Below, one piece after another: positions 11,506-34,030 of a stretch of 64,000 nt of DNA (positions are counted from its first letter, which is position 1; every line of letters begins with the position of its first letter). The stretch is from Escherichia phage arall: sequence record MN850584.1; one strand, 5' to 3'. The notes under the pieces are model-generated. The model did no database searches. It was not told where the DNA came from and saw only the letters and a program-made list of their open reading frames with translations. A program made the translations under genes and the position numbers.

Positions 11506-12992
11506 TGGCAGATTATGGTTTAACAGATGCTGGTTTTGTCATTCCAACGTTTGATGATATTCTAAATAATTATATGACAGCATTGAAAAACACTTTCGGT
11601 GCAGATACAGCTACATCTGAAGATACTGTCTTTGGTCAACTGTTTCGTATTATTGCATATACAGATTACACCCTTTGGGAAGGTATGCAAGGTGTTTACA
11701 ATACCCAAACCTTAGATGGTGCAGAAGGTATTTACCTTGATGAAATTTTCTCTAAAAGGGGTTTTTATCGTAAAGCTGCTTCTGCTGGTAGTGGTTATGC
11801 TTATGTTAAATCTAACAATAAGGCAGCTTGGACTTATGAGCTAAGTACAGATGTTTATTTTAACGCCGATAACGATTTGACATATTATGTCAGTGCACCA
11901 ACAATGTTGAATGCTAAGATTGGAGCATATACCATTTCTAAAGCAAACGCAACAGCTTCTGGTGAAACTTCTATTACTTTCTACATTCAAAGTGCTATTG
12001 ATGGTGGTCTTAACAGTAAAACACTAAGTCCTAGCAATACAAACTTTATTTTAGATCTCACGAATTTCATTAAAGCTAACGTATCAACAACAGATCGTGC
12101 TTTAGTATGGAATGATGCTAGTAATGTTTACATGGGTTATAATCCAGAAGATAATGTTAACCCAATAGGTCTAGTAACACCAGTGAAATTTTATGCATCT
12201 ATTGCAATAGGTACAAAATGGAGTGAAATTCCAGTTACGTGTTCAGACGTTGGTTATAATCCAGTAGGTACAGAAAGTATCACAGGTATTTCTTCAACGT
12301 TTACAGGCTTTTTAGATACAGGTAACTTCTATCCATTCTCTCCAGGTACAGATGTTGAAACAGATGCAGAATTCCGTTCTCGTTTCAATGATAATATGGA
12401 TGAAGCTAATGCTGCTACTCGTGCTGCTATTGTTAAAGCTCTGCTACTGACAGATGGTGTGACAAAGGTTAAGATTTATGATAACCCTACATTACATGAT
12501 CAGGAACATGCTCCAGCTATGACATTCCAGACTATTGTGTATGGTGGTACAGCAGAAGAAGTTGCACAGGTTATTTATAATACTAAGCCTATTAACACCC
12601 TAACCTATGGTACAACAGCAATTACTATCGTAACAGAAGATGGTGGTCAAGAAGTAATTCGTTTTTCTCCTGGTGACAATGCTGAATATTCACTTAAACT
12701 AGTATATCAAACTGGCAATGGTAGTGTGTTAAGTACAACAGAAAGAGAAAATATTGTTTCTGCTCTTTCAAATCTACAGGCTTATTTTGAGTTAGGGTCA
12801 ACAGTAACTAACGATCAGATAAAAGGTGTAATTTATTCTGCACTTGCGTTCGGACGCTTGACTTCTCTCCGTGTTTATGTTAAACTTAATACTGAGGATG
12901 ACAGTAAATATAATGAGGGAGATATCACTCCAGCGTACAATGTTGTACCATCCTTTGACCTTGATAATATTTCCTACGAGTACGGAGTCTAA
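11505..12992 (+). CDS. baseplate J-like wedge protein (by position)
   Basis: 495 aa; ATGA overlap with upstream gene; precedes a gpI/XkdU-like gene and the tail fiber. Confidence 0.35.
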   Translation: MADYGLTDAGFVIPTFDDILNNYMTALKNTFGADTATSEDTVFGQLFRIIAYTDYTLWEGMQGVYNTQTLDGAEGIYLDEIFSKRGFYRKAASAGSGYAYVKSNNKAAWTYELSTDVYFNADNDLTYYVSAPTMLNAKIGAYTISKANATASGETSITFYIQSAIDGGLNSKTLSPSNTNFILDLTNFIKANVSTTDRALVWNDASNVYMGYNPEDNVNPIGLVTPVKFYASIAIGTKWSEIPVTCSDVGYNPVGTESITGISSTFTGFLDTGNFYPFSPGTDVETDAEFRSRFNDNMDEANAATRAAIVKALLLTDGVTKVKIYDNPTLHDQEHAPAMTFQTIVYGGTAEEVAQVIYNTKPINTLTYGTTAITIVTEDGGQEVIRFSPGDNAEYSLKLVYQTGNGSVLSTTERENIVSALSNLQAYFELGSTVTNDQIKGVIYSALAFGRLTSLRVYVKLNTEDDSKYNEGDITPAYNVVPSFDLDNISYEYGV

Positions 12993-12994
12993 AA

Positions 12995-13624
12995 ATGGCA
13001 GTGAGTGTTGACCATGTGACAACGTGGGATAGTATCAATGAAGATGTTAAAGACCTACTGATTGAAGATTTTAAATCTTCTCCGAACATTGTCAAACTAC
13101 TCTATATCATTTCTAGCGAAAAACAAAAGATAGATCAGGCAATGATCTATCTTGCCAAACACCGCTTAATCTCTACTGCGACTGGTAAGTATTTAGATCT
13201 TATTGGTGAAGAGATGGGGATGGAAAGAAATGGTGCTACAGATGAAGAGTATCGTACAATATTAAAAATCAGGGCTTATCGTGTTGCGTCTTCTGGTACG
13301 CGAGATGATATCATTGATATGTTCGCTCGTTTTACAGGAACAGAAAAAGAAACGATTAATACATACGTTGGACTAAATAAAACATTCGACGTATTCTTTT
13401 ATAATTTGTGTCTACAATCCGATCAGGCAGTAGCACAGTTACTTAACGTTTTCCCGATCCTAAGTAGTTATCGCTTAGGTGCGAAAGCGGGTGCAGCCTT
13501 TGGTTTCACTTCCTATTATGCCACAACTCCACCTCATGGTATAGGTGGTTTAGGTTCTCTTTACACAGAGGCTGAAGGAGATGATACAGGGCGAATGACT
13601 ATGCTGATAGCTCAAATAGAATAA
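12995..13624 (+). CDS. baseplate/tail protein (gpI/XkdU-like by position)
   Basis: 209 aa; between J-like gene and tail fiber gene. Confidence 0.35.
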   Translation: MAVSVDHVTTWDSINEDVKDLLIEDFKSSPNIVKLLYIISSEKQKIDQAMIYLAKHRLISTATGKYLDLIGEEMGMERNGATDEEYRTILKIRAYRVASSGTRDDIIDMFARFTGTEKETINTYVGLNKTFDVFFYNLCLQSDQAVAQLLNVFPILSSYRLGAKAGAAFGFTSYYATTPPHGIGGLGSLYTEAEGDDTGRMTMLIAQIE

Positions 13625-21911: not shown

Positions 21912-22343
21912 TTAATCAGTGAAAATTACGCTTACATCTTCTTTAGAGAAGAGTTTATGATCTTCACCTTTTGTCTCAAGAGTTTCATACAGGTTAAGAA
22001 GTTCTGAAACATCTTTCTCTACCAGTTTCTTCAATGTTGCAATTTTCTGTTTGCGACTCTTAATACGTTCAGCTACAACCTTACGCTGGTATCCGGCAGT
22101 ACGATAACCTGAGAAAGTTACACCAGTGAGACTTGCAGTTACAGGATCGTAGTGACGTTCAATCTGAAATTTATTAAAAGGTACAGCGTCATCACGAATA
22201 ATCTTACCGCCATTACTTACTTGACGAAGACCAGTAACTTGTTCCAGTCGTGCCATAGAAATCTTTGGAGACAGACCAGAGTCCAGGTTCATACCGTTGT
22301 TAATCAGTGCTTTCAGGGTGATTTTGCTGTTCAGTGTACTCAT
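21912..22343 (-). CDS. hypothetical protein
   Basis: 143 aa; GGAGG 9 nt upstream of ATG; start lies inside the 3' end of the methyltransferase gene (44-nt overlap). Confidence 0.45.
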   Translation of the reverse strand: MSTLNSKITLKALINNGMNLDSGLSPKISMARLEQVTGLRQVSNGGKIIRDDAVPFNKFQIERHYDPVTASLTGVTFSGYRTAGYQRKVVAERIKSRKQKIATLKKLVEKDVSELLNLYETLETKGEDHKLFSKEDVSVIFTD

Positions 22344-23031
22344 TTAGTCGTTCCTCCGCTTGCTTAAAAATATTTACATCGGCTTCACAGCCTAAGTATT
22401 CTCTACCTGTTAAAAGTGCCGCAACTTGTGTTGTTGCACTTCCAGAGAAGAAGTCTAAGACTACATCTCCTTCGTTGGTGTGTATATTAATAAGGTCACA
22501 AAACAAAGTCAAGTGTTTTTGTGTTGGATGAAAACGATCTGCTCCTTGATAGATAGGATACTCAAACACACCCTTATGGTAGGAAGCATTGAAGGTTGGC
22601 TTCGAACCTTTAACACAAACAATAGCCATCTCTTTAGCGTTACTAAGATAGTTAACACCGCTGTTGATGGGTACAGGGTTTGTTTTAATCCATTCAATAG
22701 TACGGAACATACGAAAACCAAGCGGTTCAAGGATTTCACGTAGCTCCTGGATCTTCCAGATATCATACCAAACTATGCAAGTACCACCTTTTCTAAGCAC
22801 CCTATAGGCTTCTTTGAATACTTCTTTAAAGTAAGGAATATCTACAACATCCCAATCACCAAAGTTGTAAGATACACGGAATCTATCCGTATCTTTTCCA
22901 GTCGGCTCTCCAGATTGAAAATTTGTGTCACGAGAAATAGCATATGGTGGGTCAGTAAGAATCAAATCTACACTATTGCTTTCGAGGGTTTGCAGGTAGT
23001 TTAATGCGGTGTTGTTTACAAATTCGCTCAT
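22300..23031 (-). CDS. DNA methyltransferase (beta-class N6-adenine or N4-cytosine)
   Basis: 243 aa; motif IV LILTDPPYAIS (DPPY) precedes motif I VLDFFSGSATT, the beta-class order. Confidence 0.75.
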   Translation of the reverse strand: MSEFVNNTALNYLQTLESNSVDLILTDPPYAISRDTNFQSGEPTGKDTDRFRVSYNFGDWDVVDIPYFKEVFKEAYRVLRKGGTCIVWYDIWKIQELREILEPLGFRMFRTIEWIKTNPVPINSGVNYLSNAKEMAIVCVKGSKPTFNASYHKGVFEYPIYQGADRFHPTQKHLTLFCDLINIHTNEGDVVLDFFSGSATTQVAALLTGREYLGCEADVNIFKQAEERLNEYTEQQNHPESTD

Positions 23032-23040
23032 TATATCTCC

Positions 23041-23069
23041 TTCAAAGAAAAGGAGCCGTTAGGCTCCTT
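23041..23069 (-). terminator. rho-independent terminator
   Basis: AAGGAGCC-N4-GGCTCCTT hairpin, T-rich on - strand; near-identical to the hairpin at 21882. Confidence 0.55.
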
Positions 23070-23091
23070 ATATTCACACAATATTTAACTA

Positions 23092-24039
23092 TTAGAAACA
23101 GTGCAGGAAGTTTCGACCATACTGCAAACCGATAGGAGCAAATGGGATATCATCATCGAAATCTTGAATAACAGGTTCTGGTTCTTTCGGTGCTGGCTCT
23201 TTCTTCTCTACTTTTTTAGTTTCTTTCTTAACTTCTTGTACTGGGGTAGACATTCCACGGATAGCAGCAGCCACTTTATCAGACAAAGCAAGAACTTCAC
23301 GAGCAGCTTCAATAATCTCTTCTGCCGTTACAGTTTTACCTGTATGATCACGACAAGCGTTAAGAATTGCGTGTCCAACTGAAGCACCAAGATCATAGTC
23401 AGTCACATCAACGCCACGATCTTTAGCAATTTCAGCTTTCAGAGTAACAGTTGCAGATTGTACCACACCAGCCAAGTCGAAAGCATCACCTTTCACACCA
23501 GCACGTAGAAGCTCCAGAGCGCCGTTTACAGCGTGTCCTGTTTCGATCCCTACGGTATCACGTTTTTTGTAGTTAGGCTTGCTACCGTCATTATTAGATG
23601 GCTTATTTCCACCTTTTGAAGAGGATTGTGCTTGCTGAACACCTTCTGTTGAAAGAATAGTGATTTTACCTTTAGAGGAGTTGTAGTATGTTTTGCCATT
23701 CCATTCAGAAGGTTTAACATCCATAGTTAGTTCTACACCTTTTTCGATAGTAACCCACTTATCACCATCTTTAACTTGCAGGTTTTCATGTTCTGGGTGC
23801 AGTTTAACTTCACCTAGGCTAACCCAAACACCTTTATCATCAGCACCAGCACCTTTCTCTTTAATAAGCAGAGATGCTTTGTGAGTTGATTCAATTTTCT
23901 TATCTGGCTGACCTGCAACCTTAATATAAGAGACTTTCATTTCATCAAACTTATCTAGTTTGACATATTCAACAATACCTTCAGCCCAGAATGCTTCTTT
24001 TTTAGTACGACGGTCGATTTCAGAATTAATTACTGGCAT
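23092..24039 (-). CDS. ssDNA-binding-like protein carrying an SSB C-terminal-type acidic motif
   Basis: 315 aa; …QDFDDDIPF matches the bacterial SSB tip (DFDDDIPF) but is followed by 15 more residues (APIGLQYGRNFLHCF); OB-fold not verified. Confidence 0.4.
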   Translation of the reverse strand: MPVINSEIDRRTKKEAFWAEGIVEYVKLDKFDEMKVSYIKVAGQPDKKIESTHKASLLIKEKGAGADDKGVWVSLGEVKLHPEHENLQVKDGDKWVTIEKGVELTMDVKPSEWNGKTYYNSSKGKITILSTEGVQQAQSSSKGGNKPSNNDGSKPNYKKRDTVGIETGHAVNGALELLRAGVKGDAFDLAGVVQSATVTLKAEIAKDRGVDVTDYDLGASVGHAILNACRDHTGKTVTAEEIIEAAREVLALSDKVAAAIRGMSTPVQEVKKETKKVEKKEPAPKEPEPVIQDFDDDIPFAPIGLQYGRNFLHCF

Positions 24040-24055
24040 AAATTCTCCTCTATAA

Positions 24056-24454
24056 TTACATTACTTTAACACAAAACTCTCGTAAAAGAGTAGCGTCAGT
24101 TTCTTCCAACAGGTATTTACCAAGACCAATACCAAATCCTATTTCACCACTTTCAAAATGGAGGATTTGTATCTTTTCTCCACCAAGGTTAATTACTTTT
24201 GCTTTTCCAGGATTATCCAAAACATCTCGTATTGTATCCTGTAGTAACATTAGTTCACGTTTTGTGATAGTGGTTTCAGATATCTCTTTGTCTTCTACCC
24301 GCACTGTTAAACGGTTGTATCCACCAAAGAGACATAGTATTTGAATAAAAAAGGTATTATCTTGAGGTTCAACATCTTTTTTAGTTAGTTCAAGACGATT
24401 AGTTTCTCTACTGTAGAACGTCTCGACTAAGATTTTAGAACGATTGTCTGTCAT
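24056..24454 (-). CDS. hypothetical protein
   Basis: 132 aa ORF with GAGGA RBS. Confidence 0.45.
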   Translation of the reverse strand: MTDNRSKILVETFYSRETNRLELTKKDVEPQDNTFFIQILCLFGGYNRLTVRVEDKEISETTITKRELMLLQDTIRDVLDNPGKAKVINLGGEKIQILHFESGEIGFGIGLGKYLLEETDATLLREFCVKVM

Positions 24455-24509
24455 TCAAGTCCTCATAATAACACATAATTGTAAGGTTTGTCAACACTTA
24501 AATCTTAAA

Positions 24510-25112
24510 TTATTCGTTGTTAAATGAATCCAGTGTACGTACTTCTGGTTCTTTGGGAATGAAAACGTCTTTTACAAAGCGGAACATAGGGAAACGTTCT
24601 GCCATTTTACGGACGTGTGCTTCTTTACCTGTGTATCGGTGATTAATAGTGCAAATATTAGTTTTCAATGCAAATTCAAAATCTGGATGATATACATAAT
24701 TTTGACCATCCCAGTAACACAGGCAAATAGCTACGTCAAAGTTCCATACGATTTCACTGCGTACACCCTCTTCCATGATCATAAAGTTAAACTTAAGATC
24801 TTTATAGTATGCTTCAAATACCCATTTCAAATGTGGTAGTTCGGCATAAGTGTGTTCTGTTTGCTTAGTGAGTTGTTTAACATTACGTGCACCAACACCC
24901 AACATCAAAAACTTCTCTACTAGCACGAGTGTATTATGGTTAGGCATACGCAAGTAAATGTCAATGTCTTGTGCAGGTTTCTCTAATCGCCAATCACGTA
25001 CAGCGCCGCCAGCTACAATTGCAAACGGATCTACCAGTTGGCACATACGTAATACTTCTAAAGCGCGTACTTTTTGATCTTCAATATTCATATTTTCTCC
25101 TATCGTGTCCAC
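24510..25112 (-). CDS. pol-beta superfamily nucleotidyltransferase, CCA-adding/poly(A) polymerase head-domain-like
   Basis: 200 aa; IVAGGAVRDWRLEKPAQDIDIY matches the GGxVRD…DxD motif of the CCA/PAP head domain. Confidence 0.5.
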   Translation of the reverse strand: MDTIGENMNIEDQKVRALEVLRMCQLVDPFAIVAGGAVRDWRLEKPAQDIDIYLRMPNHNTLVLVEKFLMLGVGARNVKQLTKQTEHTYAELPHLKWVFEAYYKDLKFNFMIMEEGVRSEIVWNFDVAICLCYWDGQNYVYHPDFEFALKTNICTINHRYTGKEAHVRKMAERFPMFRFVKDVFIPKEPEVRTLDSFNNE

Positions 25113-25696
25113 TCTTTATGTTGTTCTACATGCTCAAGCATTTCATTATACAGTGCTTTAAGATGTGGAACAACTCTTTCATCTTCAGTTTCAAAGAATT
25201 TTGTAAGCTGCTCTGCCTTAGCTTTCAACCAGCAAAGATGCGCTTCAATTTCAGTATTAAAACGTCCCAGCGTTTTCATGCGATCATCTACTTTTATATT
25301 GGCTTTGTATTTATTACGATCTTTTTCGTAACTACAGCCTACCATAGTTCCATGAGATCTTTTACTTACTCTATAAGCTAAGAACTTATTAAGATCTCCT
25401 GTTACTAAAAGACAGGTATCGGGAGAGTAAACCCTCCCTCCTATAATATCTTTATCAAGTTCTAAGTTTTCCCAGTTTTCCCAAGTTTGCAACCAGGAGT
25501 AGAAATTTGAGAACAGTTTCCATTCTTCACAAACCGTCACCCCCTTATAACAAGGATCACGTTCTTGTTGGCAAGGGGAGTAACACCTCCCCAGCATAGC
25601 CATCCATTTCATATAATGCGGCGTTAGTTTCTTACTACCAGGTAGCGTACTCTCGCCTTGCAAATCATTAATACCTTCACCATATACGGTAAGCAT
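25100..25696 (-). CDS. free-standing homing endonuclease-like protein (AP2 DNA-binding domain type)
   Basis: 198 aa; N-terminal MKWMAMLGRCYSP…YKGVTVCEEWKLFSNFYSW and C-terminal GCSYEKDRNKYKANIKVDDRMKTLGRFNTEIEA (AP2-like) typical of phage HNH/AP2 endonucleases; abuts polymerase gene. Confidence 0.5.
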   Translation of the reverse strand: MLTVYGEGINDLQGESTLPGSKKLTPHYMKWMAMLGRCYSPCQQERDPCYKGVTVCEEWKLFSNFYSWLQTWENWENLELDKDIIGGRVYSPDTCLLVTGDLNKFLAYRVSKRSHGTMVGCSYEKDRNKYKANIKVDDRMKTLGRFNTEIEAHLCWLKAKAEQLTKFFETEDERVVPHLKALYNEMLEHVEQHKEWTR

Positions 25697-25723
25697 AAAA
25701 ACTCCTTTAAAATCAAAGAGATG

Positions 25724-28303
25724 TCAGTGACAACTGGCCCATGAGTTACCAACATCGTAACCAGCAGTGAGAGGTACATTAAGATTGTAATACTCACCAG
25801 CTTTATTAACAGCGATAGATGCTAATTCTCCAGCACGACTGTAGGCTGTAAACCAACCACCTTTCGGAGATTCATGTACGTTAGCCCAAATCTTGCCAGT
25901 ACGTTTCTCTTCCTCTTCTTTCCAGGCATTAACTTTATCCAAACATTCTTTATCAATTTTCTTTTGTTCTTCTGGATCATCAACTTGAGTCCAACCTAAA
26001 GATTCTTTAGAGAACCATTTAAAATGCACCAGATCACGAGTTACTTCAAGCTGTGCTTCATCGTGATATGCAATCATTTGTTGAACGAATGACTTATTTT
26101 TCCAGTCATCAACAAAAAAGTCAACAGCTAATCCTTCTTCTTCGATAAGATCGTCGTAGATAACCATTGCTCTTTTTGCACAAATAACACCACCACTCTG
26201 GAACAGAGAGTTAAGTATTGCGTGTGCAGATCGTGTAGGTACTTTCCTACCATCAATACCCAGAATGTATTTCTTACCTGTTTTAACCCAGAAATCATGC
26301 AGACGTTCTTTAAGAAGTGCAAGAGGTTTTGCAGCTTCCCAGAAAGCATCGTATACAAGCTGTCCTGTATACATATCACTACCAATAGTTTTTGCTACTT
26401 TTGCAGCTTGAGCACCATAAGTAATGCCATACTTAACAGATTTAGCAGGGCTTCGTTCAAACTTGCGACCAATAGTGTCAGAAATACGTCGAGCCATCAT
26501 TGTATGAACATCATTAGGTTTTTCCAACAATAGAGCATTACAATATTCGTGTGGTTCCTGCTCGTACCGCCAACAGTAGTGTGATTCTATTTTTGCCTCA
26601 AGAGAATCAAAGTCATAACCAATTTGGAAGTATTTTGGAACTTCTACACCAAATAAGTTACGCATTTCATATCCGTACAGAGATGTTACACGTGGGATAT
26701 TTGCTACTAACCTATGTTTCATACGAGACGTAGCTGCATCACACGTTGCAGCAGGAGTTGGTATACGACCATCAGCCCTTACTGCCGCCAGATAACCTTT
26801 ATCGTAATCCTCTTCATCTTCTTCCCAATCAGCACCACCACCTAGAATAGAGTTTCTACGATGTTTATACGTAAGATACTGCACAATCTGCGTAGCATAA
26901 GGAAACTTTTCACCCAGTGCTTCCAGGTTAGGACAAATATCTTTCTCTTGCCCTTTTGTAAAGGAAGGGTTAGTAAGCACTTTAACACCACGACCTTTAG
27001 CTTTAGCAATACGATCTCTTAGTTTCCATTCCAAAGTTTCTGGTGTGCACTCCAGATGATCACATCTATCCTGGCAGAAGTTAGATGCTAATGTTTGATC
27101 AACATAGTCACGAATAGCTTTCTCCATTTGTGCTTCATCTTTCTTAATCTTAGTGCCAGATTTAAGAGTGATATCTTTATCTTTATATTCAGATGGACTC
27201 CAACCTAAACCAACTAACCAATTTTTAATATGTGTAGTGTCGTCTAAAGTAGCAGGTACTGTAGGATCACAAATAGGTTCTTCTGCTGGAATAGGGAGTT
27301 TAAACTCTTTACCTAATGCAAATAACCACCAACCATCTTCTTTTTGTACAAGTTCACCAGAATGTTTCTCTGCAAACTTTATCATGTTACTTGAAGGTTC
27401 ACCATTCTTTTTAAACTGTAGTTTAGGTGGAATGAATGATTTCAAATAACCTTTAGTAGCAGGTTTAGGAGGTAGCACAGGTTCTGCCTCTAAACGACAT
27501 GCTTCCATTCGAGCATCCAGATCACGAATATTATCTTCTGCTTGTTTCATATTGAAAGCAAAGCCACGGTGTTCTTGACGTGTAATAATATCAGCTACAC
27601 GTTGTTCTAAGTTAAATGGTTCAGACCACTTATTATAATCACCCCACTCTTCCATCAAATAACGGAACACTGCGGTGTTAGCTTTGTTATCGTAAATACA
27701 GTAATACAGCATATCTGCTGCAAATGTTCTAAATCTTTCAGCTTCAGGAATGTTTTTTCTAAAATCAATTTTAACATCCCCTCCAGCTTTCTTAGATAAC
27801 TCTGCCAGACTATGACCACCGAAGCGATCAGGGTTTAGTGTCTTACTTAAGATCATAGTATCACAAATTTCAATGTTACTATTACCCCAAGTATTGTACT
27901 TGATACTGTAGTTGAGTTTAAAAAATAATTTAATTGCCAGTAAGTCGAAGTTAATGATGTTGTGTCCAACTACTTTGGTAATTTTATAGTTTGAATTACC
28001 TTTAAATTTACCTGTTCCATTTACAAAATCAGGAAAATCTTTAAGAGGGAAATGGGTATATTCTAAATGCTCATATTCCTCCAGTCGGTATTCATACTTT
28101 CCGTCAGTCTCAATATACGGACGACCATCGAAAAGATATTTATCACCATCATGGAAAGCAATAATCTCTCCAGTATCATGACTTTCGCACACAATACAGT
28201 GCATTGCAAAACTATCTTTTAAACGATATGGACTTGCCAAGTAATCTACACTTTCGTCATTAAGCAAGTTGTTACTTTCAATGTCGAAAGTAAAAGCTCC
28301 CAT
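25724..28303 (-). CDS. DNA polymerase, family A, with 3'-5' exonuclease domain
   Basis: 859 aa; Exo I FDIESNN near N-terminus; motif B-like RSPAKSVKYGITYGA; motif C YHDEAQLEV. Confidence 0.8.
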   Translation of the reverse strand: MGAFTFDIESNNLLNDESVDYLASPYRLKDSFAMHCIVCESHDTGEIIAFHDGDKYLFDGRPYIETDGKYEYRLEEYEHLEYTHFPLKDFPDFVNGTGKFKGNSNYKITKVVGHNIINFDLLAIKLFFKLNYSIKYNTWGNSNIEICDTMILSKTLNPDRFGGHSLAELSKKAGGDVKIDFRKNIPEAERFRTFAADMLYYCIYDNKANTAVFRYLMEEWGDYNKWSEPFNLEQRVADIITRQEHRGFAFNMKQAEDNIRDLDARMEACRLEAEPVLPPKPATKGYLKSFIPPKLQFKKNGEPSSNMIKFAEKHSGELVQKEDGWWLFALGKEFKLPIPAEEPICDPTVPATLDDTTHIKNWLVGLGWSPSEYKDKDITLKSGTKIKKDEAQMEKAIRDYVDQTLASNFCQDRCDHLECTPETLEWKLRDRIAKAKGRGVKVLTNPSFTKGQEKDICPNLEALGEKFPYATQIVQYLTYKHRRNSILGGGADWEEDEEDYDKGYLAAVRADGRIPTPAATCDAATSRMKHRLVANIPRVTSLYGYEMRNLFGVEVPKYFQIGYDFDSLEAKIESHYCWRYEQEPHEYCNALLLEKPNDVHTMMARRISDTIGRKFERSPAKSVKYGITYGAQAAKVAKTIGSDMYTGQLVYDAFWEAAKPLALLKERLHDFWVKTGKKYILGIDGRKVPTRSAHAILNSLFQSGGVICAKRAMVIYDDLIEEEGLAVDFFVDDWKNKSFVQQMIAYHDEAQLEVTRDLVHFKWFSKESLGWTQVDDPEEQKKIDKECLDKVNAWKEEEEKRTGKIWANVHESPKGGWFTAYSRAGELASIAVNKAGEYYNLNVPLTAGYDVGNSWASCH

Positions 28304-28799: not shown

Positions 28800-30572
28800 T
28801 TAATAAGAACCATCAGGAATATTCTCTGGGTTACTTGTGTATTGATCGTAATCGTGAAGTGTCGCTGTTTTAATCTCATAGAAGAAACTACCTGCTGCAC
28901 CAGTCTCTGAGAACTCACGGTTCTTTAGAATGTAGCAATATGTGCGGTTACGTTCCATAGGATCTTCAGCTTGTTTATCACGCTCCAGCGCAATTGTGAT
29001 ACCAGCACCTTTAGCAAGGAAGCTACTACCCATTGCATCATCTTCTACAATATGTTCATTACTATTGTTAGAAGACTTTTTAACGTGTGAAATTACAACA
29101 ATGGTAATTGCATACTCTTTCATAATGCGTTTCAGCCACGTCGCAAGTTCCTCTTGTTGTGACACGTCCATACCAGAAAGCAAATCAGAATAAGGGTCGA
29201 TAACAAGAATGGTTACTCCGAAATAAATAATCATTTCCAGAACCTTCTCTTTAATCACATCTACGTTAGCTCCACGATCATCACAAACATAGAAACGTGG
29301 TGTTCCATCTTCTCGTTCGTAAAAATCACGAATCTTTTCTTCATTATCTTTTAAAATCTTTTCCTTCTCTTCTTTTGTTTTACGGTGAAGAGGGATGTGC
29401 AAGAATGAAGACAGTAAGTTACGAGAATACTTCTTATACGTTGCCTCCAAAGATAAAATACCAAGAGTATGTTCTGGGTGTGCAAGAATAATGTGCTTCG
29501 TAATCTCGTTAACCAACAGTGTCTTACCAATACTTGTTTTTGCAAGTATAACAGTAATTTCTTCTTCTACCAAGCCTCCACCTAACATATTAGAAGCAAC
29601 ACGCATGAATGGAGGAAGGGTGATCATTTTAGCTTCCAGGCATTCCAAGGCTGCTTCATACAGTACGTTAGAAGCATAAACACCAGCAGGTGTGTACAGT
29701 TTAGCTTTGAAAAAGCGATCAAGAAAGTGATCAATTTTTCCTTCTACTAATGCCTGGTTAGGATCTTTAACATCAGTTAGTTCCATCACGTAAACTTTAT
29801 TACGTGGTAAGATTTTAACACATTTCTCAACTGCTGCACGTCCAGCTTCATCATTATCCATACATAGAACAATCTTTTTAAATTGATCTAAGAATTTATA
29901 ACGATGTTGAAGCTGCTTATGCAGAGATGTTTCGCCACAAGTACCAGATACTACAGCAGGAACAGGATATTTACCACCCTTGTTATAATCTTTTAGCATC
30001 TGTGTTGCAGCCAGCATATCGTGTTCACCACCAACGATTAGAATAGTACCGCTGTGGTTACGATATTTAAACTCCCCAAAAAGATCACAATCCTTTCCTG
30101 TTTCACCGATAGGATGTGAGAAATCTTTTGGATCGATACGTTGTTTATACCCAGCAATATTGTAATCTTTAGTTGTAGGGTATAGTGTTGAAATTACTTC
30201 GCCAGTAGCTTCATCGTACATATAACGTACACCGAAAGGCTTAGAGATATCTTCACGAATACCGCGATAACCTTTTGGATTAGTTCCAGTGCTGGCTTTT
30301 AGTTTATCATGTACTTCAGGATTAAACTCACTACCCAAGATATCCTCCTCTTCAATTTCTTCGCCGTGTGCATTTAACCATTTTTGATCAGGGATAGTAA
30401 AGCCACAAGAAAAACAATGTGCTCCTCGATGGTCTTCATCGGCATCTAAGCCATATACCATCAAATTGTTTTGTGATCGATCACGCCCTCCTTTCATACA
30501 ACGAGGACACCCAGTATGTCCTTCTTGACTTAGATCAATGTTATACCCATATTTATTTACAACATAAGACAC
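28800..30572 (-). CDS. bifunctional DNA primase-helicase (T7 gp4-like)
   Basis: 590 aa; Zn ribbon CPRC…CFSC; TOPRIM acidic motifs (GGEHD, MDNDEAG); DnaB-type Walker A AKTSIGKT and Walker B VLVIDPYSD. Confidence 0.8.
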   Translation of the reverse strand: MSYVVNKYGYNIDLSQEGHTGCPRCMKGGRDRSQNNLMVYGLDADEDHRGAHCFSCGFTIPDQKWLNAHGEEIEEEDILGSEFNPEVHDKLKASTGTNPKGYRGIREDISKPFGVRYMYDEATGEVISTLYPTTKDYNIAGYKQRIDPKDFSHPIGETGKDCDLFGEFKYRNHSGTILIVGGEHDMLAATQMLKDYNKGGKYPVPAVVSGTCGETSLHKQLQHRYKFLDQFKKIVLCMDNDEAGRAAVEKCVKILPRNKVYVMELTDVKDPNQALVEGKIDHFLDRFFKAKLYTPAGVYASNVLYEAALECLEAKMITLPPFMRVASNMLGGGLVEEEITVILAKTSIGKTLLVNEITKHIILAHPEHTLGILSLEATYKKYSRNLLSSFLHIPLHRKTKEEKEKILKDNEEKIRDFYEREDGTPRFYVCDDRGANVDVIKEKVLEMIIYFGVTILVIDPYSDLLSGMDVSQQEELATWLKRIMKEYAITIVVISHVKKSSNNSNEHIVEDDAMGSSFLAKGAGITIALERDKQAEDPMERNRTYCYILKNREFSETGAAGSFFYEIKTATLHDYDQYTSNPENIPDGSY

Positions 30573-30584
30573 ATGATTCTCCTA

Positions 30585-30854
30585 CTAAAATGATTCGTTT
30601 GTCTCCATAATATATTGCATTTCCAAATCTTCCATATGTTTCTTAAATTGGTAAACAATTTCCGATGGGGAAATATCTATATCAAAAAGTTCTTTTGTAC
30701 CAGAATAAAATCTAATACCATCAACAATAAGACCACCATAATAATCCCAATCACTTTCTCGTGAGAAAGGGTTAGGTTCTTCATAATAGTAATCTACTTC
30801 AACAATAATAGGTTCTTTATTATCTTGTTTATACTCAAAATCAAAAGTGTTCAT
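30585..30854 (-). CDS. hypothetical protein
   Basis: 89 aa acidic ORF; ATGA overlap with downstream gene. Confidence 0.4.
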   Translation of the reverse strand: MNTFDFEYKQDNKEPIIVEVDYYYEEPNPFSRESDWDYYGGLIVDGIRFYSGTKELFDIDISPSEIVYQFKKHMEDLEMQYIMETNESF

Positions 30855-31798
30855 TATAAATCCTCGATAAGCAGTTTGCGGGTTTCATTTAAATCATCAA
30901 TATTGTAGTTATCTCTTACATACTTAGCAAGAGCTAATCCTTTCTCAATACAAACATCAGGAGATTCGATTAAGTATTCTACAATATCTTTCCACTCTTT
31001 AACTGAATCAGCAAAGAAGATTAGATCTTTAAATTCTTCAGTATAGTAGTTCTCTCGTGGCGAACAAACGAGTGGCAAACCTTTAGCACCAGCTTCAAGA
31101 ATTTTTAAATTACTTTTGGCATTATTAAAATGATTATTTACTAATGGAGCTATGGAGATTTGATGACCATCGTATGCTTCCATATAACACTCATAAGGAC
31201 GAATACCTTCATAAACACAATCTGGTTGAATATCTTCTTTAATTTGCAACCATTGAGCACTACTTAACTCTTCGTGATCTCTACGAAATCCACATAAAGT
31301 TAAATCTTTACCAAAATCAGGAAGAATTGCTAAATCATGTTTATGGGTTTCACTTCCCGCCCAAACCAGTGGACTTTTAGAATAACGATCTTTAGTAAGA
31401 ACAAACTGTCCTTCATCAAAAGGTAGTCCGTTAGGCACAATATGTACATTATCATTGTATTGGCTTAATTCAACCTTTAACGCCGGAGTTGTTGTAGTTA
31501 CAAGATCGCTTCTTTCAAGGAACCATTTTAGATCATCTCGGATTTGATTTTCAAATAATCCTTCAAGCATATGCCCTTCAGGAATAATTAAAGAATCATC
31601 CAGATCCATTACCAATTTAAACCCAAGTTGTTTAAGAGCCAGGAAACCTGGCTTTCCACGTGTTGGTACTCCATTGAACACAAAAATATTATGCTTAGGA
31701 TTAATGGTCAGTTTGCGTTTATATGGCAAAATGATTCTATGAAAATCACATACACTATACTTTTCATTTCCGCGTGTGTCAAGAATAATATTAGGCAT
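30854..31798 (-). CDS. glycosyltransferase-like protein (GT-B-like), paralog A
   Basis: 314 aa; C-terminal ISIAPLVNNHFNNAKSNLKILEAGAKGLPLVCSP; paralogous to 31810-32784. Confidence 0.4.
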   Translation of the reverse strand: MPNIILDTRGNEKYSVCDFHRIILPYKRKLTINPKHNIFVFNGVPTRGKPGFLALKQLGFKLVMDLDDSLIIPEGHMLEGLFENQIRDDLKWFLERSDLVTTTTPALKVELSQYNDNVHIVPNGLPFDEGQFVLTKDRYSKSPLVWAGSETHKHDLAILPDFGKDLTLCGFRRDHEELSSAQWLQIKEDIQPDCVYEGIRPYECYMEAYDGHQISIAPLVNNHFNNAKSNLKILEAGAKGLPLVCSPRENYYTEEFKDLIFFADSVKEWKDIVEYLIESPDVCIEKGLALAKYVRDNYNIDDLNETRKLLIEDL

Positions 31799-31809
31799 AT
31801 ATCTCCTTG

Positions 31810-32784
31810 TTAAAGACTTTCAATAACTTGACGACGCAGTTCATTGGCATCTGCAAGATTATAATTAAGACGAACGTGTTCTGCAAGCATCATACCACGA
31901 TCTTCTGTGTATCTAGGGTTCCTCATTAGCTTGACAACTTCATAATGCCAAGATGCTTTAGAGTCTGCATAGATAACAACCTTTGCATCTACCGGATTGA
32001 AGTACGGCAGCACAGGAGAACAGATAATAGGAAGACCCTTTGCACCTGCTTCCAAAATCTTCAAATTGCTTTTACAGTTGTTGAAGTCATTATCTACTAG
32101 GGGAGCAATTGCAATACTGTGACCGTCATACACAGACATATACTCACCTAAATTTTTAATAGCTGGTTTATACTGTGCATTTGGAATTTTACGTTTTATT
32201 TTAACCCACTCCGCAGTAGTTAGATACTGACTATTATTTCCAACAGGTGCAGAAGGATACACTTCATACCCTGCAATTGTCAATAGTGTATCATCAAATG
32301 TATTAGCTACAAGAGATAAATCAGGCTCATGGCTTGCTCCTCCAGCCCAGATAATAGGTGTGTCAGAACTACGGTCTTTTGTCAAAGTAAATTGACCTTC
32401 GTCGTAAGGTAGTGCGTTTCTAATAACGACAACATTACGATTTAAATGACGAATTTTGTAAGCTAGGTATTCTGTTGTTACAGTAACCACATCTGCTAAC
32501 TTAATCATCTCTACAATAGTCTTTGAGTGATTAGTAAATACGCCAGCCATATAATGTTCAGGATTAAGCGAATAAAAATCATCTAAATCAACAATAATCT
32601 TAACACCTTGTGCCTTCAGGCGTTTAACTTCGTCTGATCCACGAGAATACACTCTATTAAAAACTAAAACGTCTTTCTTAGGTTTAAACGTATTTCCAGC
32701 AAATGGCATTACAATACGATGGTAATCACAACCACTGCCTAACTTATTATCACACTTAAGTACAGGAGTATTAGGATTTACCAT
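31810..32784 (-). CDS. glycosyltransferase-like protein (GT-B-like), paralog B
   Basis: 324 aa from internal ATG (MVNPNTPVLK) with GAGGAGG RBS; IAIAPLVDNDFNNCKSNLKILEAGAKGLPIICSP aligns with paralog A. Confidence 0.4.
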   Translation of the reverse strand: MVNPNTPVLKCDNKLGSGCDYHRIVMPFAGNTFKPKKDVLVFNRVYSRGSDEVKRLKAQGVKIIVDLDDFYSLNPEHYMAGVFTNHSKTIVEMIKLADVVTVTTEYLAYKIRHLNRNVVVIRNALPYDEGQFTLTKDRSSDTPIIWAGGASHEPDLSLVANTFDDTLLTIAGYEVYPSAPVGNNSQYLTTAEWVKIKRKIPNAQYKPAIKNLGEYMSVYDGHSIAIAPLVDNDFNNCKSNLKILEAGAKGLPIICSPVLPYFNPVDAKVVIYADSKASWHYEVVKLMRNPRYTEDRGMMLAEHVRLNYNLADANELRRQVIESL

Positions 32785-33457
32785 ATTTTTGAGCCTCCTC
32801 ATAAGAGATAAAAGTTTTACCATTGCGAAGATCCTCCAGTGATTGTTTATATTGTTCCCAGTTTACACCAATCCCCTGTTCTTTCTCTTCTTTTGACAGA
32901 TTCGCAAAAGGTAAAGGATTATCTCCAAACACATCGTCAGGATGGATAAACGCCATAATTCGAATAGGACATGGTACACCGAGAATGCCTCGGTTCAAAC
33001 CTGCCAGTGGAACGCGCTGAATCCACTCTGCATCTTCATATCCATAACCGTGGGTGTATGAGCGGAAATAGCCAGCTTTCTCAATAACTGCACGGGAATA
33101 CATACCAAACTGGCACATACCTAGTTCCCAAATAACCACCTCCCCTTCAATACCTTTTACTTTATCTTTAAAGTATTCAGGCATACCAAAGAAATCCCAA
33201 CCATTTTCCTTTGCCTGTTTTACAAAATATGTTTCCCACCCTGGAACAACAGGATAGCAATCATCATCAAAAATAAACCAGTAGTCATACCCTTCATCAT
33301 AAAACTTTTTCATCAGTTCATTACGGGCATATGCAACACCTTTTCGTTCACGATCATACTGTACAACAAAAGTAGCATTAGGATCAGTCACAAGATAATC
33401 TTTAAGAGGACGCTTACCTACAGTAATAACACCAACACCAATTTTTGTATTTTCCAA
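32771..33457 (-). CDS. glycosyltransferase, GT-A fold (DxD type)
   Basis: 228 aa; WFIFDDDCYP (DxD) and YGYEDAEW acidic motif. Confidence 0.45.
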   Translation of the reverse strand: MENTKIGVGVITVGKRPLKDYLVTDPNATFVVQYDRERKGVAYARNELMKKFYDEGYDYWFIFDDDCYPVVPGWETYFVKQAKENGWDFFGMPEYFKDKVKGIEGEVVIWELGMCQFGMYSRAVIEKAGYFRSYTHGYGYEDAEWIQRVPLAGLNRGILGVPCPIRIMAFIHPDDVFGDNPLPFANLSKEEKEQGIGVNWEQYKQSLEDLRNGKTFISYEEAQKYGKS

Positions 33458-33466
33458 AATAACTCC

Positions 33467-34030
33467 TTAAATAATTTTATTCATGTCTTGACAATGTAAA
33501 AGGTGTGAAACAGCTTTTCTAGGATCATCATTACCTAAACGGTAGGTGTGAAATAAATATAACCCACGTAATAAACCTAGCCTTTTGTTGTTAGCATGTA
33601 ATGCTTTAGAGAAAATTATATCAAACTGTATTGATCTTTCCTCAAAAGGAATTTCATTCCACAGACTCTTACGAAAGAGAAGAAAGAATCCTGCTAAGAT
33701 AGCATCTGTAGGTACTTCCTCTATTGAGTTTCCCCATTCTAGATGTGCTCTTTTTGCAATCTCAATGTGGTGTAATATATTCGGATCTTCACTTCTTTCA
33801 TTATTAAATAATTGATATGTTGATCCCAATCTGTTACAAGATGCACCAAGAACATCAAAATCAGGATTTGAACGGACAATTGATTCCAGCCAAGCAGGTT
33901 GTTCTGGAAGAAGAAACATTGTATCAATGTCTCTTAGGCAAATCCAACTATCTTCTGGTAAGACACTTATTGTGTCATTGATACCTTTTCCAATATCTCC
34001 AGAAAGATAGGGAGTTATGTGAAATATCAT
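33467..34030 (-). CDS. hypothetical protein, possible nucleotide-sugar transferase-like
   Basis: 187 aa; ICLRDIDTMF acidic motif; GGAGGGAG RBS; adjacent to three glycosyltransferase-like genes. Confidence 0.3.
   Translation of the reverse strand: MIFHITPYLSGDIGKGINDTISVLPEDSWICLRDIDTMFLLPEQPAWLESIVRSNPDFDVLGASCNRLGSTYQLFNNERSEDPNILHHIEIAKRAHLEWGNSIEEVPTDAILAGFFLLFRKSLWNEIPFEERSIQFDIIFSKALHANNKRLGLLRGLYLFHTYRLGNDDPRKAVSHLLHCQDMNKII

Follow-up and report, generated by a model that had tools for sequence, protein, structure and literature searches.

On the minus strand of Escherichia phage arall (record MN850584.1), an open reading frame (ORF) at positions 24510..25112 begins with GTG and encodes 200 amino acids. 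(All positions are those of the window, the whole 64,000-nucleotide stretch of DNA that was analysed.) The frame is real; the likelier coding sequence of this nucleotidyltransferase (NTase) is 24510..25091, which opens with an ATG at 25091 and encodes 193 residues. The ATG is preferred because a GGAGA ribosome-binding site lies upstream of it, and because it agrees with the RefSeq start of PHB05 gp151 and with the amino termini of homologues. Residue numbers throughout follow the 193-residue protein. The gene matches gp151 of PHB05, labelled "nucleotidyltransferase" in RefSeq, and the phage is a Justusliebigvirus (phi92-like, Stephanstirmvirinae) coliphage whose positions 23000-27000 are 98.6% identical to W22 and PHB05. 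A GAA to TAA change makes the stop codon (24510-24512) of the window gene. PHB05 and the relatives L003 and L004 keep GAA, and the last four residues (EFKI) of PHB05 and two IMG/VR relatives are missing from the window protein (...NNE in place of ...NNEEFKI). Genes at the locus run on one strand in the order primase-helicase, DNA polymerase, HNH homing endonuclease, NTase, gp150, gp149, and DNA methyltransferase (Table 1).

A first-pass annotation of this DNA had recognized a 200-residue protein with a GGAVRD...DIDI motif, had described it as a stand-alone head domain of the CCA-adding type, and had proposed that it might repair tRNA 3' ends or tag RNAs, plausibly in counter-defence. That reading divides in two: a class II head-type nucleotidyltransferase is indeed present, whereas repair of tRNA is not what the remaining evidence favours. 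The protein itself is borne out by a match to PHROG 1614, by invariant motif residues, and by a confident class II-like model. The PHROG 1614 ("nucleotidyltransferase") match covers residues 7-192, nearly the full length, with E=3.4e-34; Pfam PF26128 is precomputed for a 99%-identical protein (P0001) and for many relatives. A word-indexed homologue search gave two clusters, and an exhaustive profile search was used instead. The latter recovered no fewer than 995 clusters (50% identity) at E<=1e-3, including 280 at E<=1e-10, and nearly all of these relatives are stand-alone proteins of 175-230 residues. The gene family itself is already catalogued (PHROG 1614, PF26128, RefSeq, GenBank); set against characterized enzymes, it is a new variant of class II nucleotidyltransferase.

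Structure prediction, one of the checks that the first-pass annotation had suggested, recovered the head-domain fold of a class II CCA-adding enzyme. The AlphaFold model was built from a 120-sequence alignment (pLDDT 92.5) and replaced an earlier three-sequence model (pLDDT 56.6). When it was compared with the PDB by Foldseek, each of its top 44 matches was a class II enzyme adding CCA, CC, or A, or else the poly(A) polymerase I (PAP I) of E. coli. These alignments take in the whole NTase with about 175-200 columns, and the targets measure 350-520 residues, so the earlier statement that no body or tail is recognizable also stands. Typical class II enzymes (1MIV, 4WBY, 3H37, 6QY6) have about 370-520 residues, against 193 for the phage protein. 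Each secondary-structure element of the model has its counterpart in the head or the first neck helix of the Bacillus enzyme; as modelled, the protein is a head plus the first half of the neck only.

Sequence likeness to class II enzymes, by contrast, is confined to motif A (E=0.0035). Pfam PolyA_pol, the head-domain family, gives a weak match (19.2 bits versus a cut-off of 23), and the NCBIfam CCA equivalogs give 15 bits versus a cut-off of 290. In phmmer and profile searches against the PDB only motif A aligned (E=0.0035-0.5). Neither E. coli Cca nor a four-sequence class II alignment (probability 10%) could be aligned trustworthily with the family profile past motif A by hhalign.

The first-pass annotation had allowed that the protein might group with antitoxin-type nucleotidyltransferases. 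This possibility does not apply, because the top 44 Foldseek matches are class II enzymes or PAP I. MenT/AbiEii toxins and MntA antitoxins score lower than class II enzymes and have different motifs. Unlike those systems, the NTase locus holds no cognate partner gene, and the family is absent from bacterial chromosomes and from PADLOC. Two candidate assignments were accordingly rejected: an MNT (MntA-type) antitoxin, since the nearest folds are class II and no HEPN toxin gene is adjacent; and membership in a defence system, since PADLOC does not include the family.

What does the active site retain? Among 120 aligned relatives, residues G28, G29, W34, D42, and D44 are invariant, and Q6, A10, A27, A30, R32, D33, Y82, and K162 are conserved in at least 90%. 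The catalytic carboxylates D42 and D44 align with D40 and D42 of the Bacillus stearothermophilus (Bst) CCA enzyme (E=0.0035, motif A only). Two features are the family's own by comparison with class II enzymes: the insertion that bears Y82, and the invariant W34.

The third carboxylate is different. By the register of the beta4-turn-beta5 hairpin its canonical position is taken by N102, with E93 as the cross-strand neighbour; the counterpart in the Bst enzyme is Glu79 on beta5, reportedly the third carboxylate there (Li et al. 2002). Over 153 sequences, position 102 is Q in 127, N in 19, and D in 5, and position 93 is E in 90, D in 16, and N in 20. The two positions covary, with the pairs E/Q, E/N, and D/Q on one side and K/D and R/D on the other: D at 102 is paired with K, R, or G at 93, whereas Q or N at 102 mostly goes with E or D. 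Residue D114 of Gp22 from Klebsiella phage fHe-Kpn01, a distant member of the family, aligns on N102, and the authors who described Gp22 placed an h[DE]h motif at that residue. Judged from these sequences, the third acidic residue has plausibly moved to Glu93 on the neighbouring strand in the window NTase. Loss of the catalytic carboxylates, which the first-pass annotation had named as grounds for doubt, is therefore seen at one position of three (N102); D42 and D44 are kept, and Glu93 plausibly compensates.

The same observations bear on whether the protein is an enzyme at all. It might instead be a replisome subunit that binds nucleotide or serves as a scaffold and has no catalytic activity, given that about 95% of the family lack the canonical third carboxylate and that 28% have no acid at either 93 or 102. 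We consider this highly improbable: not one of at least 150 diverse sequences departs from GG and DxD, which would be unusual for pseudo-enzymes, and Gln and Asn are still able to ligate Mg2+.

Motifs A-E define the class II CCA-adding enzymes. EDxxR (motif D) serves as the template for CTP and ATP, and neither its D nor its R can be replaced; RRD (motif B) recognizes ribose; and a flexible loop is needed for A-addition, the C-to-A switch (PMC11784652). In the phage family neither EDxxR, RRD, nor the loop survives. At the RRD position the consensus is x-F-[P/D/S] with no conserved Arg, and position 118 is F in 133 of 152 sequences and M in 17. The helix at the motif D position, anchored on R166-F167, places I/V160 where the templating Arg should be, and the Asp position is acidic in about 50% of the family; K162 and [KR]166-F167 are conserved in this helix, the templating Asp and Arg are not. 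The flexible loop is replaced by about five residues (107-111) between beta5 and the next helix, versus about 20 in the Bst sequence. Finally, the NTase ends at residue 193 and has neither body nor tail, the domains by which the tRNA elbow is bound. With RRD and EDxxR gone, a five-residue link at the flexible loop, and Asn or Gln as third carboxylate, the phage NTase departs from class II enzymes at each specific element. Because no CCA- or tRNA-specific element survives, the name "tRNA nucleotidyltransferase" is, on sequence grounds, probably not justified and misleading.

The name nevertheless is widespread: GenBank often labels relatives "tRNA nucleotidyltransferase" or "tRNA nucleotidyl transferase/poly(A) polymerase". 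It corresponds to the proposal of a minimal enzyme that adds CCA or repairs tRNA 3' ends and thereby counters host nucleases that attack tRNA at its ends, as has been hypothesized for full-length phage CCA enzymes (PMC7824862). The nearest solved structures, which are CCA-, A-, or CC-adding enzymes, agree with this proposal, as does the genomic setting in so far as this group of phages possesses 16 tRNA genes together with a cassette for RNA ligase and phosphoesterase. However, these genes are remote. The PHB05 tRNA cluster (L099 1278-4159, about 51.3-54.2 kb) was found by ARAGORN and has no entry in the RefSeq feature table consulted; together with an ATPase / RNA ligase / phosphoesterase cassette (L097 43050-44940, with the ligase and phosphoesterase at 43.4-44.9 kb), a candidate RNA-repair module, it lies 43-52 kb from the NTase. 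All 16 of these tRNA genes encode their 3' CCA, and a role in maturing phage tRNAs was rejected for this reason. Elsewhere in the family, tRNA genes lie within 8 kb of the NTase homologue in only 8 of 56 loci. A search for tRNA genes in the window found none. Many carriers, moreover, are T7-like phages, the 17 kb of fHe-Kpn01 examined contain no annotated tRNA gene, and the host already has Cca. Since the CCA- and tRNA-specific elements are absent and the gene travels with DNA-replication genes, tRNA repair is quite unlikely, and the counter-defence role built upon it is left unsupported.

Comparison with E. coli PAP I (PcnB; 3AQL) raises another possibility: a PAP-type enzyme that puts untemplated tails on host or phage RNA, marking it for 3' exonucleolytic decay and thereby speeding RNA turnover and nucleotide recycling. 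The structural similarity to PAP I would fit, and so would the fact that Gp22 is toxic in E. coli, the one phenotype on record for the family (PMC7291057). But identity to PAP I is 15%, and the phage protein has only the head-neck core, without the C-terminal RNA-binding domains. Residues of the PAP I pocket, including those that select ATP (EDxxR), are not conserved. RNA tailing also leaves unexplained both the SSB-like tails described below and the close linkage to polymerase and helicase genes, which has been rearranged time and again. It seems rather unlikely.

The gene context speaks for replication more than for tRNA. Genes around the NTase were surveyed in 80 fetched IMG/VR viral loci, whose family members are 21-99% identical to the window protein (best tblastn segment). 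A T7-type primase-helicase is present in 62 of the 80 loci and Pol A, the family-A DNA polymerase, in 59, on the same strand and with a median separation of about 2 kb. Their order is not fixed: helicase-NT-polymerase, helicase-polymerase-NT, NT-helicase-polymerase, and polymerase-NT...helicase all occur. On contigs of at least 30 kb, a helicase or polymerase gene lies within 3 kb in 31 of 52 cases, versus 8-13 expected by random placement. In fHe-Kpn01 the homologue and the 3' end of the DNA polymerase gene have 4 bp in common, and the gene key of the Pectobacterium phage maps lists a homologue beside DNA polymerase (PMC7693777). In the window, a promoter scan found no strong promoter between polymerase and NTase, and the NTase appears to share a transcript with the T7-type DNA polymerase. 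A sigma-70-like promoter (11/12 match: TTGACA, 18 nt spacer, TATTAT, extended -10 TG; 24494-24465, minus strand) sits in the 55 bp that separate the NTase stop from gp150, which suggests that gp150 and gp149 can be transcribed apart from the polymerase-HNH-NTase unit.

Gp22 and the window NTase share PHROG 1614 (E=1.3e-39 and 3.4e-34, respectively) and are of the same size. Like the window NTase, Gp22 and the "tRNA nucleotidyltransferases" of Pectobacterium Autographiviridae are encoded beside DNA polymerase. The two subgroups differ in that Gp22-type proteins have Asp at the third position with Lys opposite, whereas the window NTase has Asn102 with Glu93, and their profiles are moderately similar (hhalign probability 77%). 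A bacterial protein deposited as a "CCA-adding enzyme head domain" (PDB 2LA3; Streptococcus pneumoniae NP_344798.1, 191 residues) shares 9% identity and was not detected by the family profile search. A literature search for a paper on 2LA3 or for PF26128 found nothing useful, and we know of no link between the 2LA3 protein and replication genes.

The family appears to be restricted to phages, because a scan of 185,579 species genomes found 12 family loci, every one on a contig of a metagenome-assembled genome. Many look-alikes of 167-224 residues from phages and giant viruses are present in BFVD, none of them characterized. Such a phage-only, patchy distribution is typical of accessory or counter-defence genes, and is compatible with a non-polymerizing NTase that nucleotidylylates a protein or small molecule, or handles a nucleotide signal, in host takeover or anti-defence. 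Invariant Y82, W34, and K162, together with Q or N at the third metal-ligand position, make a pocket unlike that of polymerizing class II enzymes. A distant member is toxic (PMC7291057), and the slot between genes 4 and 6 of T7-like phages holds such genes according to a published map legend (PMC7693777). Even so, neither a partner gene nor homology to a defence system was found. To our knowledge, moreover, no class II-type enzyme acts on proteins or small molecules. This explanation, too, is unlikely.

The carboxyl termini of the family offer a further connection to replication. Among 152 representatives, 32 end in F, W, or Y, versus 8.4% of neighbouring ORFs (p ~1e-6). About ten members end like the tip of the single-stranded DNA-binding protein, SSB (PDDIPW, QDDIPW, NDIPW, KPIPF, EIPF), and others end like the tails of T7 gp2.5 and gp4 (SDDDF, WDEEF). 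Bearers of either kind of tail include the closest relatives of the window NTase. For primase-helicases, 39 of 57 end in F or Y. The neighbouring gp149 carries DFDDDIPF, identical to the last eight residues of E. coli SSB. In the window genus this motif is internal, with 15 further residues (APIGLQYGRNFLHCF) after it, whereas in sister genera the gp149-like protein at the same locus ends exactly in ...PPMDFDDDIPF. Pfam and PDB searches with gp150 and gp149 found no match, and no other gene was seen labelled SSB in the PHB05 annotation. On the strength of the SSB-tip motif, the missing Pfam and PDB matches, and the want of another annotated SSB in PHB05, gp149 is a candidate phage SSB.

Taken together, these features lead us to prefer, tentatively, the following reading: the protein is an active, minimal, template-independent nucleotidyltransferase, expressed with a T7-type replisome and acting on a nucleic-acid 3' end other than the CCA end of tRNA. 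It would be a template-independent terminal transferase rather than a CCA-adding enzyme because it has neither an amino-acid template for C and A nor a domain to measure tRNA. What the data establish is the fold, the conserved active-site residues, the loss of CCA and tRNA determinants, the confinement to phages, and the recurring linkage to replication genes. For acceptor, nucleotide, and docking partner we infer the following scheme. D42 and D44, with Glu93/Asn102, would bind the metal-nucleotide complex, and the nucleotidyl group would pass from an NTP or dNTP to a 3'-OH. Transfer would proceed without a template, onto a nucleic-acid terminus, whether a DNA 3' end or a primer, that arises at the replication fork or close to it. 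The NTase of many relatives might be docked by a disordered tail like that of SSB or gp2.5/gp4 (DDIPW, DDDF, DEEF) on a protein that reads SSB tails, be it the polymerase or helicase of the phage or a host partner of SSB.

Several observations weigh against this reading of a replisome-associated terminal transferase. About a quarter of the loci have no replisome gene nearby. The linkage to replication genes is only suggestive, as the T7-like slot also holds genes for host takeover and anti-defence. SSB-like tails occur in a minority of members, and the tail of the window NTase (...LDSFNNE) is truncated and not SSB-like, so the tail evidence concerns the family rather than the window allele. 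Chemistry may differ from classical two-metal polymerization in view of the 28% of the family that have no acidic residue at 93 or 102. The mapping of N102 to Bst E79 and of F118 to RRD follows secondary-structure order, MAFFT and hhalign alignments, and the literature on 1MIV, not superposition. Since the hhalign alignments with class II enzymes are untrustworthy beyond motif A, the placing of motif B, motif D, and the third carboxylate rests on secondary-structure order and the alignment with Gp22. A literature search for a functional study of members of PHROG 1614 or PF26128 found none.

A bolder form of the proposal can be stated. The family might represent a new class of replisome-tethered terminal (deoxy)nucleotidyltransferases, recruited through SSB- or gp2.5-like tails to the T7-type polymerase or helicase and extending DNA 3' ends or primers without a template. 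Near-invariant Phe118, in place of RRD, would then be a steric gate that favours dNTPs. Untemplated addition could serve fork protection or restart, or hide the ends from nucleases of the host. With the Phe118 gate included, this elaboration is doubtful.

The remaining features of the locus and of the family can be described briefly. The HNH homing endonuclease between polymerase and NTase is absent in the 99%-identical relative L004, and in other relatives the polymerase gene is intein-containing or enlarged (an ORF of 1104 residues in L003; SD2 annotation). These differences mark the polymerase region as a hotspot for mobile elements. The gp150-like gene always comes next after the NTase in this clade (10 loci). 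Beyond the primase-helicase lie four glycosyltransferase genes (30854-34030, minus strand; PHB05 gp157-160). This run, together with several genomic DNA methyltransferases, raises the possibility that the module has functions in DNA or surface-glycan modification. Elsewhere in PHB05, candidate genes for NAD+ reconstitution (ribose-phosphate pyrophosphokinase and nicotinamide phosphoribosyltransferase) are located at L097 47832-50530, and a Sir2-like gene at 12317-13129.

Some members carry additional sequence. An N-terminal domain of about 90 residues (MKxRVxSPxHSxxxQxxLFxxGYxW...), in one or two copies, is present in three proteins (P0060, P0075, P0036) and in seven loci (L021, L029, L030, L038, L041, L042, L047); in three others (L049, L050, L063) it sits in a separate 202-residue ORF upstream of the NTase. 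This domain corresponds to PHROG 17589, and a Pfam search with it found no match. Small unrelated N-terminal extensions in P0097, P0050, and P0029 likewise matched nothing in a family search. Lacking Pfam matches, the N-terminal fusions give no hint of function. The homologue in Vibrio phage ICP1 is limited to residues 3-126 and is followed by a separate small ORF (L044 8001-8369, an ICP1-like contig; BFVD F1D1P7, ICP1 ORF223, 137 residues). The NTase gene may therefore be split or shortened in ICP1.

Table 1. Features of the NTase gene and its neighbours in the window (residues in 193-residue numbering)
Feature	Position	Strand	Basis or remark
DNA methyltransferase	22300-23031	-	Window gene table
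gp149-like protein, 315 residues	23092..24039	-	DFDDDIPF at residues 293-300; cluster c8
gp150-like protein, 132 residues	24056..24454	-	PHROG 16560; cluster c7
NTase coding sequence	24510..25091	-	TAA stop 24510-24512; PHROG 1614; AlphaFold model
C-terminal tail, residues 176-193 (...RTLDSFNNE), probably disordered	24513..24566	-	pLDDT ~50-58
Helix 156-167 (KEAHVRKMAERF) at the motif D (EDxxR) position	24591..24626	-	Alignment; helix from the model
N117-F118-D119 at the RRD (motif B) position	24735..24743	-	Placed by secondary-structure order
beta4-turn-beta5 hairpin with E93 (24813-24815) and N102 (24786-24788)	24786..24815	-	Alignment and model
Y82, in a family-specific insertion of ~10 residues between beta3 and beta4	24846..24848	-	151/153 sequences
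Motif A part 2, D42-I-D44-I (residues 42-45), two catalytic carboxylates	24957..24968	-	D42 and D44 invariant
Motif A part 1, G28-G29-A-V-R32-D33, then W34	24993..25010	-	Conservation in 120 relatives
AGGAGA ribosome-binding site of the NTase	25096..25101	-	Read from the sequence; overlaps the HNH stop codon (25100-25102)
HNH homing endonuclease between polymerase and NTase	25100..25696	-	PHROG 953, E=8e-74
Family-A (T7-type) DNA polymerase, upstream of the NTase	25724..28303	-	PHB05 annotation; cluster C2
T7-type primase-helicase	28800..30572	-	PHB05 annotation; cluster C1

Genes of this family are annotated in hundreds of phage genomes, including those of therapeutic coliphage, Klebsiella, Acinetobacter, and Pectobacterium phages. 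A routine annotation thus becomes a biochemical question: what is the role of a 190-residue template-independent transferase encoded beside a DNA polymerase? Were the protein instead to tail RNA or work on tRNA, it would rank as the smallest of the active enzymes in its class and would be of use in enzyme engineering. If it acts at the fork, or if the tails do mimic SSB, the family would add a new accessory activity to the replisome, and would explain the toxicity of one of its members.

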